Shown here: piece after piece, positions 20,804 to 24,257 of the stretch
How positions within the stretch are numbered: position 1 is the first letter of the stretch
How the letters are laid out: each line of letters starts with the position of its first letter
Assembly: GCA_964643615.1 (NCBI GenBank)
Contig: CAZXTR010000002.1
Location: 937-64,936, forward strand
DNA from: an uncultured Lactobacillales bacterium
GTDB taxonomy: Bacteria; Pseudomonadota; Alphaproteobacteria; CAAHEQ01; UBA3637
Reading direction: 5' to 3'
DNA length: 64,000 nt
The notes under the pieces: model-generated
Seen by the model: the letters and a program-made list of their open reading frames with translations, nothing else
Told to the model about the DNA's origin: nothing
The model's database searches: none
Program-made: the position numbers and the translations under genes

Positions 20804-20879
20804 ACTTAAAAAATGCATTGTAATAAAGAAAGTTTTTTTTTATAATGGATTTAAACTTATTTATGGGGGAGGACGTTGA

Positions 20880-23800
20880 ATGTTAGAAGAAGTATTAAAA
20901 AAGGTGAAAAATCTTTTCAGAAAAGATTCGGGGAATCATTCTTTGTGTAAGCAACGTTCAGAAAAACAGAAAAATCAATTTATTATTGTTGGCCATGGGA
21001 TGGTCGAGATGCTAGCGGTACTTGCTTTGGTAGGCGTATTGTCGGTAGGAGGTGTTACATGGTATCAATCTAGTCTACGGAAAGCAAAATCGAACGATTT
21101 GTGGAAAGAGGTTATGTTGCGAAGCATAGCGACGCGGACGGCTCCTGACTTTATGATCCTTAAAAATGGGGAAGAATTTAACTTAGCAGGCTTATCAAAT
21201 ACGACGAGCAATGGTTATACTATAAAATCATTAAAATCGAATGGAGCGTCTTATTATATAGAGTTATCAAATGTTCCGTCGGCGACATGTAAAACGATGT
21301 TGAAATCTGTGCCAGAGGGGGTACGCCATATTACAGTAGGCGATAGCACTATGTACGATGGAAGCGACAAGAGCATCTGTGACAGTGAAAGTGCAATGCG
21401 CTTTGCGGTGTGTTTTGGCGTAACATGTACGTCGGTTGATTTGTGCAAAAATGTAGACTGTGGAGATAATGGGTGGTGTAATCAGGCGGAAGGGATATGT
21501 TATTGTAATCAAGGTTTTGTGAGGGATGCAGCGAATAGCTCGTGCATAGTTGATCCGTGTCCGCCAGAAATGAGATGTTGCAATGGTGGTAGTAAATTTG
21601 TGTCTGGGGGAGCATGTTCATGTCAATGTCTATGGCCATGGATGGGGTCGGACTGTACAGAATTGGATAATGTGTGTATGCCGACGGTGTCGGGGCATTC
21701 TTCAATCGATTGTGGGGCTCATGGGCAATGTATAGAGGATCCGTCATCTGATGTTCCGACAAAGAGTCCAAAATGTGAATGCGATAATTGTTATAGCGGA
21801 AATTTATGTGATCAAAGAGATGAGTGTTGTTTTCAAATGATGGAAAATCCAAATTTATGTAGCGGACACGGTGATTGTTTTGATGTTAGCGATAGTGGCA
21901 GGTTATTCCTATCTTGTAACTGCGATTCCGGATACAAAAATACAAAGTTCTATTCGAAAGAGTATCACACCGCCGATGCTCTAGAAATGGGAGTAATTAG
22001 TTGCGATACGTGTGACACAGGGTATTATCGCTCTGATGAGAATACTTGCTCGGCATGTCCGACAAATGAAGGTGTTGAAGGTTGGTCACAAGAAGACAAG
22101 GCTACTACATTTAATGGGAGTTGTGTGTATCAAGTGCATGCTGATTGTGAAACGGTTTATTTGCCTCAAGGCGCTGCTTGTGTATTGGGAGAGTTGAATG
22201 GAGTATGTTCAGAGACCCATGAGTGTGTGCCGGATTGTGGTGAGACCGCATGGTGGAATGGTACGAACTGCTCATGTTTGGAAGGTTATTATTCAGCAGG
22301 CGGGATAATAGATAATGAGACACATACGTGTACAGCATGTCCGGAAAATTCATTTAATGAAGGAACGGGTAATACATCTTGTACGTGTGCAGTGGGATAC
22401 TTTTCAGCAGACGGGACAACAAATAATGAGACGCATATGTGTACGCCGTGTTGTCCAGATGATCCCGAAAGTTTAGAGCCGAACTTTGAAAAATGTCCTC
22501 CGTCGACGACGGAGCCGGGACAAATGTCCTGTACGTGTGCAGATAAGGAATGGGTATCGGATTCATCGTCACAATATTATAACACATGCGCCATAGTGTG
22601 TGGAACAGAACTTTGTAATGAAGGACAATATTGCAAAGATGCAAACACATCGCACACGGAGCGTACTCCATTGGAATGTGCAGATTTACCCCCAGAGAAA
22701 GCGAGTATTTATGTAGGCGGACGTTTGTATACGAATTTTAAACCAGGTTTCACCTCGTGGTGGGACGCCGACAGCATTTGTAGAGCTTATGGTAGTTCAT
22801 TGGCGACACAAGCCATTATTGGACATACGGGTGATGCCGCCCAGTGGGTTGAAACAGATTTATATGAAAAATGGGAAAAGGAGTTTCTTCTTAAAGGTAA
22901 TAGAACATGGTTAGCAGACGACGTATCAAGTATACTCGCACAAACAGTGTCGATTAGTGGGAGTTTGCAGGGATTTGCTAGAGCAAGAACGGACAGTATA
23001 ATAAATGAGTTTATTTGTCAAAAAGAATATACGCCAAACTGTTCAGAAAATTCAACGTTTGATCCTGCAAGCGGTTCATGTTTATGCGACATAGGGTATT
23101 ATAATGCGGTGGATGGTACATCCGACAATGGTCAAATCTGTACTGAATGTGCCGATGATACATTCAATTATGAAAAAGGAAGTAAGTTTTGTTGTGGAGA
23201 GGGAGAGTACATTGCTGATACCAATGAATCAGATTATTTCCCCCATCCAGATCATTGTGCAACTATCCCGACAAGCCCCGATTTTTCATTTATGCTGAAT
23301 GGCTATAAGATGGATATATATGCTACAAACAAGGTTCCTTCGTGGTGGGATTCCAATAATTTGTGTAAGGCATTGGGGCAAACATTGATGACAGCGGAAG
23401 CCGTAAAATGGACAGGTTCAAAGGCATCGTGGCAGGGGGTACCTGAATCAGTGATTCTATGGAATAATATTTCGCCATATACAAGCTGGACGAACTATAC
23501 TTTTATGCAACCAGAACGGTATGGGGAAGGTATGTATTTCTATAGTAAGAGTAATGATCTAGGTATGCGCAACATTGGGTATACATCTAAATTAAAGTCC
23601 CCAGCCGGATATGATGTAGTTGTTGTATGCCAAGAGCCTTTCTCGAAGACTTGCCCTGCTAATGCAACCCTTACAGAAGAAGTGATAGTGGACTGTCAAT
23701 GCAATGAAGGGTATTATGCCCAAGATGGTGGGCGTACTATGGCCTGTACGCAGTGTTCTTCGGGAACATATAATGTAGGCACTGGCAGCACAATGTGTTG

Positions 23801-24257
23801 CACTTCTGGGGTTGAATATATGAAAGATACGAACGAAAGTGACACTATTCCCCATCGAACAAGTTGTGCTACTATGCCTGCTGTTAAACTCGCATATCAA
23901 GAAGGTGGTACAACATATAATTATTATGGATATAAAAGAAATCTTAATTATTCGTGGTGGGATGCTGAATCTATTTGTGCTTCGGCAGGGGGGCGTTTGT
24001 TATCAATAGCCGAATATGGATCTGGGGATGGTTCTCTTGCCGATAGGATGATCTCCTATTGGGAATCTCAAGGGATTACCTGGGGCGGGGGAAATTACGG
24101 ATATTATGGGACTTTTCATGTATGGACATCGGAATATCAATATGGTGGGGCTGCGAACCCGTATAAGACACTTGTGAATTTGATAGATTATAAAACATCA
24201 TATTCGATGAAAACAAATGTGGGAACGATGAAAGGTGTCTTATGTGCAATACCATAA
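20880..24257 (+). CDS. Large cysteine-rich, eukaryote-like surface or secreted protein (1125 aa). It has a prepilin-like N-terminus, ephrin-receptor/TNFR-like Cys repeats and three C-type-lectin-like modules.
   Basis: The N-terminus has a basic leader, then G|HGMVEMLAVLALVGVLSVGGVTWYQ (class III signal-like). Repeated C.C..GY(Y)....G.....C..C motifs. Three SWWD(A/S)..(I/L)C.A.G..L modules. Confidence 0.6.
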   Translation: MLEEVLKKVKNLFRKDSGNHSLCKQRSEKQKNQFIIVGHGMVEMLAVLALVGVLSVGGVTWYQSSLRKAKSNDLWKEVMLRSIATRTAPDFMILKNGEEFNLAGLSNTTSNGYTIKSLKSNGASYYIELSNVPSATCKTMLKSVPEGVRHITVGDSTMYDGSDKSICDSESAMRFAVCFGVTCTSVDLCKNVDCGDNGWCNQAEGICYCNQGFVRDAANSSCIVDPCPPEMRCCNGGSKFVSGGACSCQCLWPWMGSDCTELDNVCMPTVSGHSSIDCGAHGQCIEDPSSDVPTKSPKCECDNCYSGNLCDQRDECCFQMMENPNLCSGHGDCFDVSDSGRLFLSCNCDSGYKNTKFYSKEYHTADALEMGVISCDTCDTGYYRSDENTCSACPTNEGVEGWSQEDKATTFNGSCVYQVHADCETVYLPQGAACVLGELNGVCSETHECVPDCGETAWWNGTNCSCLEGYYSAGGIIDNETHTCTACPENSFNEGTGNTSCTCAVGYFSADGTTNNETHMCTPCCPDDPESLEPNFEKCPPSTTEPGQMSCTCADKEWVSDSSSQYYNTCAIVCGTELCNEGQYCKDANTSHTERTPLECADLPPEKASIYVGGRLYTNFKPGFTSWWDADSICRAYGSSLATQAIIGHTGDAAQWVETDLYEKWEKEFLLKGNRTWLADDVSSILAQTVSISGSLQGFARARTDSIINEFICQKEYTPNCSENSTFDPASGSCLCDIGYYNAVDGTSDNGQICTECADDTFNYEKGSKFCCGEGEYIADTNESDYFPHPDHCATIPTSPDFSFMLNGYKMDIYATNKVPSWWDSNNLCKALGQTLMTAEAVKWTGSKASWQGVPESVILWNNISPYTSWTNYTFMQPERYGEGMYFYSKSNDLGMRNIGYTSKLKSPAGYDVVVVCQEPFSKTCPANATLTEEVIVDCQCNEGYYAQDGGRTMACTQCSSGTYNVGTGSTMCCTSGVEYMKDTNESDTIPHRTSCATMPAVKLAYQEGGTTYNYYGYKRNLNYSWWDAESICASAGGRLLSIAEYGSGDGSLADRMISYWESQGITWGGGNYGYYGTFHVWTSEYQYGGAANPYKTLVNLIDYKTSYSMKTNVGTMKGVLCAIP

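Follow-up and report, generated by a model that had tools for sequence, protein, structure and literature searches.

The 64,000-nucleotide stretch of alphaproteobacterial contig CAZXTR010000002.1 analysed here (the window) contains, directly behind a cluster of virB genes, a gene for a cysteine-rich protein of 1125 residues. We interpret this protein as a modular type IV pilin, a type IV filament subunit that serves as an adhesin bearing C-type lectin-like domains (CTLDs), and give this reading a probability of roughly 0.72. The protein is encoded by a single unbroken open reading frame (ORF; 20880..24257, + strand), with a GGAGGA ribosome-binding site 7 nt upstream of the ATG. An earlier note on this DNA had started the feature at 20804, which falls in the intergenic region, and had put the cysteines at about 100; we count 80 (7.1%). 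Self-comparison divides the protein into five parts: a leader, an N-terminal module, a Cys-rich region, two short Cys repeats and three tandem units. The three units share merely 25–36% mutual identity, which suggests that they arose by old duplications. This divergence and the unbroken frame led us to reject an assembly or repeat artefact. Searched as a whole, the protein stays below every curated threshold in Pfam and NCBIfam. EGF_Teneurin is its sole Pfam match at E ≤ 10 (18 bits, cut-off 24.3), and other whole-protein matches in NCBIfam and curated models are PRK10574 pilin (E 0.0046) and TIGR02532 (9.6 bits, cut-off 16.3).

The N-terminus follows the pattern of a class III signal peptide. 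A basic leader of 38 residues (20880..20993, +) ends in Gly38 at position −1 and continues as G|HGMVEMLAVLALVGVLSVGG, placing Glu43 at +5, followed by the hydrophobic MLAVLALVGVLSVGGV. Gly(−1) and Glu(+5) are invariant in 12 of 12 aligned family members (alignment A4) and in 41 of 41 in a larger set (A7). Long leaders are typical of type IVb pilins. The leader is followed by the pilin module proper (residues ~39–185; 20994..21434, +), which comprises an α1 helix (39–87), a four-stranded sheet and two cysteines, Cys137 and Cys167. These cysteines are invariant in the 12-member A4 and invariant or nearly so across the family, and probably pair to bound the D-region. When the A4 profile is compared with the PDB, the top matches are solely type IV pilins: TcpA (E 2.8e-4) and 8tob (E 3.7e-4), followed by PilA and CFA/III. 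AlphaFold2 modelled residues 30–205 from a 41-sequence alignment with a predicted local distance difference test score (pLDDT) of 85.6 and a predicted template modelling score (pTM) of 0.75. The helix starts precisely at residue 39, is 49 residues long and leads into four strands, so that the predicted model has the pilin fold, with an α1 of ~50 residues packed on an antiparallel β-sheet. Its best structural matches are the major type IVb pilins, at 14–17% identity. The prepilin-type N-terminus that the earlier note had proposed is thus borne out by the basic leader, Gly38, Glu43 and the modelled fold, whereas the curated TIGR02532 and PF07963 are not passed.

A gene for an A24 prepilin (type IV leader) peptidase is present in the window (48344..49060, +; Peptidase_A24 E 1.4e-16, 61.3 bits, cut-off 26.5), and its product is the likely processing enzyme of the pilin-like protein. 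The peptidase gene adjoins rodZ, prfA and prmC. In a related genome (locus L003) a homologue of the A24 peptidase (11533–12198) lies in the same block of genes, which there comes straight after virB11 and precedes a pilin-like gene. The position of this block next to virB11 in L003 indicates that ~27 kb have been rearranged between the two genomes.

At the other end of the protein, each of the three tandem units puts a Cys-rich linker ahead of a module of ~115–130 residues with exactly two cysteines, one just past an SWWDxxxx motif and the other in the last strand. Unit 1 (residues 537–716; 22488..23027, +; alignments A1, A3 and A6) combines a linker with CTLD 1 (600–716; Cys634, Cys713). Unit 2 (717–920; 23028..23639, +), delimited by self-comparison and alignments, combines an ephrin-like repeat with CTLD 2 (793–920; Cys829, Cys917). 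Unit 3 (921–1125; 23640..24257, +) repeats this arrangement with CTLD 3 (996–1125; Cys1033, Cys1122), after which the frame stops. Residues 626, 821 and 1025 mark the starts of the SWWD modules, three in number as described in the earlier note. A profile built from these and from six C-terminal modules of relatives (A3) retrieves 28 PDB matches, nearly all of them C-type lectin domains. FcRY (E 6.3e-6), PLA2R (E 7.7e-4) and DEC-205 (E 9e-4) come first, and single CTLDs follow at E 0.013–0.05. The AlphaFold2 model of residues 921–1125 (15-sequence alignment; pLDDT 71.7, pTM 0.72) has mostly good confidence once its first 50 residues are passed (block-mean pLDDT 55–94 from model residue 51), and CTLD 3 shows the element order β-α-α-β-β-β-β. 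Two cysteines and a tryptophan are invariant (C113, W162 and C202 in A6; C38, W87 and C127 in A3), corresponding to the cysteines of α1 and of the last strand, of the C1–C4 type, and to the tryptophan of the WIGL-type strand.

Curated lectin models do not reach the target: neither Lectin_C (PF00059) nor Xlink (PF00193) matches it, even at E ≤ 10. The relative P0231 passes Xlink with 30.8 bits (cut-off 27). The C-type lectin assignment in the earlier note accordingly fails on the target's own Pfam matches and stands on the PDB profile matches, the model and P0231. We regard the CTLD fold of the SWWD modules as established by profile and model. None of the three modules carries an EPN, QPD or WND motif. 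In the absence of these Ca-dependent sugar-binding motifs a lectin activity is not implied. A recent transfer of the module from eukaryotes was considered and rejected, because the CTLDs show low identity to eukaryotic ones, bacterial paralogues have the module too and the GC content is unremarkable.

Between the pilin module and the CTLDs lies a long Cys-rich stretch. Its first part (residues 186–450; 21435..22229, +) appears EGF-like: tested in isolation, it reaches 24.4 bits with EGF_Teneurin (E 3e-5), barely above the cut-off of 24.3. EGF_alliinase and EGF_2 stay below threshold on the same segment, and the EGF-like domain of alliinase in the PDB is matched at E 0.02. Next come two ephrin-receptor/TNFR-like repeats of the form C.C..GY..C..C (residues ~451–536; 22230..22487, +), which are backed by the EphA4 match described below and score 16.8 bits, under the threshold, with PF07699. 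Altogether there are four C.C..GY[YF] units, starting at residues 464, 501, 734 and 939, much as the earlier note had described. A profile of the three inter-module Cys repeats (A2) finds the Cys-rich region of EphA4 first in the PDB (E 9.8e-6; 28.9 bits, bias 11.4), then EphA2, EphB2 and EphB6, and then TNFRs. The suggested ephrin-receptor/TNFR likeness is therefore backed by the EphA4 match, whereas the family test falls short: on three isolated segments PF07699 scores 16.8, 12.9 and 11.5 bits, all under the cut-off of 23.1, and it is the top match only on the first. The shared feature with Eph receptors, GCC2_GCC3 (PF07699) and TNFRs is the cysteine spacing C.C..GY[YF]...C..C...G...C.C; the differences are the sub-threshold Pfam scores, the unreliable model of this part and the use of other Cys-rich linkers by the paralogues. 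Both the ephrin/TNFR-like and the EGF-like label for the stalk seem reasonable on these comparisons without being firm. Overall, the domain reading of the earlier note was essentially right at superfamily level. Its description of these modules as eukaryotic-type and rare in bacteria was overstated, given that relatives in the lineage share the CTLD module and that pilin-CTLD fusions have already been catalogued.

The number of cysteines would require some 40 disulfides, and a DsbA-like oxidoreductase encoded in the window (31328..32134, − strand; DSBA E 5.3e-21) is a candidate for making them. The window also carries the anaerobic ribonucleotide reductase genes nrdD/nrdG (39675–42705, +), so that a system for disulfide formation, with proteins of up to 80 cysteines, would operate in an apparently anaerobic gut bacterium.

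From these elements we propose the following route. The precursor would enter the inner membrane, where the A24 prepilin peptidase would cut after Gly38. The hydrophobic α1, from residue 39 onward and with Glu at +5, would then serve both as membrane anchor and as polymerisation interface, and a type IV filament machine would incorporate the protein, most probably as a minor pilin located at the tip. The ~940-residue extension favours the tip, as does the analogy with PilB, CofB and TcpB. The extension would form a rigid, disulfide-rich stalk of EGF-like and ephrin-receptor/TNFR-like repeats, probably oxidised by the periplasmic DsbA-like enzyme. This stalk would hold out three compact CTLDs free of Ca sites, which together could bind a ligand multivalently; the ligand may be a glycan or a protein and may reside on the host mucosa, on other microbes or on gut particles.

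The protein belongs to a very large family. A profile of the pilin module finds at least 6,860 proteins at E ≤ 1e-3 among the 8,000 candidates scored. When the target itself is run exhaustively with phmmer against 1.84 billion representatives, 417 proteins reach E ≤ 1e-3, most of them aligned to residues 37–240; of the 150 best matches listed, none exceeds the target in length. A word-indexed search with the full protein recovered only the protein itself, and with the CTLD profile only three fragments. A few members bear a name in their source records (pseudopilin PulG, PilE, 'type II secretion system protein'). PRK10574 pilin matches are weak (E 4e-4 to 5e-3) and curated class III signatures are not reached, which explains why the family is almost wholly unannotated. 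Linker-plus-CTLD units occur in one to three copies in the relatives P0128 (792 aa, three units), P0129, P0140, P0231 and P0186. Two further relatives, P0257 and P0131, share the pilin module and the first EGF-like stretch of the target and have different C-terminal repeats. Their C-termini consist of four or five copies of the type CP.GQYC.V.Y..DC..FSDGG..MYGVC.DW, which belong to no known family; the sole match of these repeats, DUF228, is probably spurious.

To place the family in its genomes, one genome per species was scanned with VirB11, yielding 51 loci whose VirB11 is 60–83% identical to that of the window. Almost all derive from metagenome-assembled genomes (MAGs) of uncultured Alphaproteobacteria recovered from the human gut, the rumen, the caecum or comparable sites. 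When the target is compared with these loci by tblastn, solely the first ~240 residues align. A motif scan of the 51 loci finds 13 genes, spread over 12 of them, whose products begin G|RSMVEMLGVLAIIGVLSVGGI.GY..AM.K.KAN, and six of the 13 encode a single C-terminal CTLD. The genomic context of seven family members was also inspected, and six of these stand alone among housekeeping genes (thrS/hisS, groEL/atp, yidC/mnmE and others). The density sampled, about one gene per 40–80 kb, would correspond to a few dozen copies per genome. Swappable Cys-rich and CTLD tips on one pilin module suggest a variable repertoire of adhesins. If they are indeed surface adhesins, such tips would be prime candidates for attachment to mucus, host cells or other microbes, in a very large and almost entirely unannotated family of poorly known uncultured gut and rumen Alphaproteobacteria. 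The literature on RF32 or gut Alphaproteobacteria with type IV secretion systems (T4SSs) or pili yielded nothing relevant.

How does this compare with known modular pilins? A survey of modular type IV pilins described more than 1,200 proteins in 264 architectures, the largest of 860 aa, including Streptococcus sanguinis PilB with a vWA module and PilC with a lectin module (Raynaud et al. 2021, PMC8179133). The dataset of that survey already lists a pilin-CTLD combination (IPR012902-IPR001304) for three proteins. The likeness lies in the predicted role as tip adhesin. The differences are the scores of the present family, below threshold for IPR012902, TIGR02532 and PF07963; the length of 1125 aa against 860 aa; the stalk of EGF-like and ephrin/TNFR-like repeats with three CTLDs, in a comparison where the survey dataset holds neither IPR011641 nor IPR000742; and the genomic organisation, as dozens of dispersed paralogues contrast with one or two genes in a pil locus. 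The pilin-CTLD fusion as such is thus known, and what is new is the architecture of EGF-like and ephrin/TNFR-like stalk plus three CTLDs. Since standard pilin signatures miss this family, the size range of modular pilins, here up to 1125 aa, and the variety of their architectures, here EGF-like and ephrin-like stalks and tandem CTLDs, are both underestimated in current surveys.

Other tip systems are more distant. Type IVb pilins with large minor partners, CofA/CofB of CFA/III in enterotoxigenic Escherichia coli (ETEC) and TcpA/TcpB of Vibrio cholerae, share 14–17% identity; the target differs in having no cof/tcp-like operon nearby, and the C-terminal modules of CofB and TcpB are unrelated to its own. 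The Bdellovibrio fibre tip Bd2740 (8oks), the D-domains of intimin/invasin and the C-terminal domain of Legionella Lcl are ~9–16% identical. In those proteins the tip is carried on a trimeric fibre, an autotransporter-like protein or a collagen-like stalk, whereas the carrier here is a pilin, and unlike in Bd2740, intimin/invasin and Lcl the CTLDs come in three tandem copies.

Several points weigh against a filament subunit. No PilB/GspE, PilC/GspF or secretin was found in the 64-kb window or within 10 kb of the seven context-checked members. TIGR02532 stays at the score given above, and PF07963 (N_methyl) does not match the target at all and reaches 10.7–15.8 bits in relatives (threshold 21.2). 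Position +1 is His39 instead of Phe or Met. With 1,087 residues the mature pilin would be larger than any in the 2021 survey, and the Cys-rich repeat is modelled with low confidence (pLDDT ~45 for residues 921–970). Surface exposure, cleavage, polymerisation and ligand binding are likewise predicted properties.

The lack of filament machinery nearby would also suit a protein that never enters an external filament. After cleavage, such a protein would remain anchored in the inner membrane or join a short pseudopilus of the type II secretion system (T2SS) kind, with its Cys-rich/CTLD part periplasmic or exported to the surface in some other way. The few dozen paralogues extrapolated per genome far exceed the normal need of a pilus, and large expansions of pilin-like proteins are found in other phyla, for example the planctomycetal DUF1559 proteins. 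Against this stand the CTLD, EGF-like and ephrin-like modules, which are typical extracellular binding modules, the structural matches to major type IVb pilins that polymerise, and the display of documented modular pilins on pili (PMC8179133); we therefore consider a purely membrane-bound or pseudopilus role unlikely. Much further from what we see is a horizontally acquired, eukaryote-derived effector or mimic that the T4SS would secrete into host cells. In its favour, the ephrin-receptor-like, EGF-like and CTLD modules are known chiefly from animals, and the gene does adjoin a T4SS. The protein nevertheless has a pilin N-terminus, its CTLD module is common to many bacterial paralogues of the lineage, its GC content of 0.41–0.43 resembles that of the adjoining virB10, and ~40 disulfides would be unlikely in a T4SS substrate, all of which makes a secreted effector very improbable.

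The earlier note had proposed that the gene replaced virD4, which would place it in a virB/rvh-type operon and make its product a partner of the T4SS, for instance an adhesin that selects target cells. The gene does come immediately after virB11 on the same strand, and the 76-nt gap between the two contains no terminator-like site, so that co-transcription with virB11 may occur. Members of the family recur just downstream of virB11 in L025, L020, L031 and L037 (two copies in the last), and one follows virD4 in L043. Of the 13 members in the virB11 loci, nine lie 0–4 kb downstream (165 kb covered) and four at 4–10 kb (170 kb covered), and one of the seven members picked regardless of a T4SS sits 1.2 kb after virB11. 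There is also a precedent, the thin type IVb pilus of plasmid R64, whose PilV adhesin aids T4SS-mediated conjugation. The protein itself, however, has no NTPase or coupling-protein features, and most members stand among housekeeping genes. The excess near virB11 is only about twofold, from counts that are not phylogenetically independent, and so modest an excess is more in keeping with variable DNA at a synteny breakpoint than with a functional operon.

The state of the neighbouring DNA argues in the same direction. No ORF of at least 150 aa in the window matches a VirD4 or VirB4 family, so the observation that VirD4 is missing was correct for this stretch. In the lineage, however, virD4 lies within 10 kb of virB11 in only one of 51 loci (L043, 2.4 kb downstream; PF02534 E 1.7e-52), and tblastn with the L043 VirD4 found no match in the window or the other 50 loci. 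The DNA after virB11 is not conserved among these genomes (dUTPase with an SH3 protein, typA, a methyltransferase, opposite-strand genes and others), there is no conserved downstream gene, and the three closest relatives (VirB11 83% identical) carry unrelated opposite-strand genes at this position. VirB4 is absent from the virB cluster as well, with only six ORFs without family matches between folD and virB8. The absence of VirB4 and the variable DNA after virB11 indicate that T4SS genes are split across the genome in this lineage. With virB11 ending the conserved block, the lack of virD4 behind it is normal here, and since VirB4 also lies outside the cluster, it is uninformative about the whole genome. 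We conclude that the position after virB11 reflects a synteny breakpoint and that a replacement of VirD4 is unsupported; the idea that the gene took over its place appears rather improbable. virB11 is the upstream neighbour of the pilin-like gene, and a functional link between the two is at most hypothetical. We give similarly little weight to two further options for the family as a whole, a new display route for pilin-like proteins and a functional coupling to this vertically inherited chromosomal T4SS; the coupling, if the family were indeed displayed by the T4SS or worked with it, would be of a novel kind for pilin-type adhesins, possibly with a role in choosing target cells, as for R64 PilV.

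A promoter of its own, which the earlier note had placed at about 20815–20850, fares no better. The sigma-70-like site TTGTAA-17 nt-TATAAT exists (20818..20846, +; 10 of 12 consensus matches), yet the surrounding 5 kb contain 19 promoter-like sites against 15.3 ± 4 in shuffled sequence. As such sites are equally common in shuffles, this one is no evidence of a promoter. Downstream of the gene, a terminator-like hairpin (24485..24498, +) consists of a 5-pair stem with four GC pairs and a T-rich tail.

Upstream of the pilin-like gene and on the same strand lie virB8 (10400–11134, +), virB9/CagX (11399–13033, +), virB10 (13058–19801, +; 2,247 aa) and virB11 (19814..20803, +; T2SSE E 1.5e-20, TIGR02788 VirB11 E 1.2e-40). 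The window is chromosomal and also carries folD, dnaK/dnaJ, secDF, prfA, pyk, sufBCDS and nrdD/nrdG. The cluster resembles the virB/rvh T4SS of Agrobacterium and Rickettsiales in the order virB8-virB9-virB10-virB11, in a duplicated virB8 and in being a chromosomal, conserved and split cluster. It differs in that virD4 does not follow virB11 in 50 of the 51 genomes and in the 2,247-aa VirB10 with its β-flower repeats. The second VirB8 paralogue is encoded at 9420–10112 (+; 29% identity over 145 aa, E 2e-11), and a lipoprotein-like ORF of 60 aa (10202–10384, +) occupies the expected position of VirB7. The stretch between folD and virB8 (4472–10384, +) also encodes four signal-peptide/coiled-coil proteins of 241–314 aa, one with a weak TrbJ/VirB5-like match, and contains an ORF of 613 aa. 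VirB10 carries 11 Bflower_2 repeats, Bflower and DUF3659 ahead of its TrbI domain. The same architecture is found in L059 (1213–7794; 2,193 aa), indicating that the giant VirB10 is conserved in the lineage.

The related virB11 loci offer some additional observations. In L043, VirD4 (13353–15545) is followed by two small ORFs and then by a pilin-like gene (16871–18121) with 33 cysteines. Two other loci encode, near virB11, secreted and very Cys-rich proteins with no pilin N-terminus: one of 638 aa with 52 cysteines in L013 (11993–13909), which scores 32.1 bits with TNFR_ELAPOR1-like (cut-off 33.2), and one of 451 aa with 38 cysteines in L040 (14179–15534, −). In L009, a 2,049-aa ORF with an M48 peptidase motif (11934–18083) lies just downstream of virB11. 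Across ~1 Mb of lineage DNA, a sample biased to virB11 loci, tblastn with VirB11 revealed no second secretion ATPase. Finally, three genomes labelled Holdemanella biformis or uncultured Lactobacillales (L008, L023 and L038) contain an alphaproteobacterial virB11 of 67–75% identity and are probably mis-binned or mislabelled MAGs.

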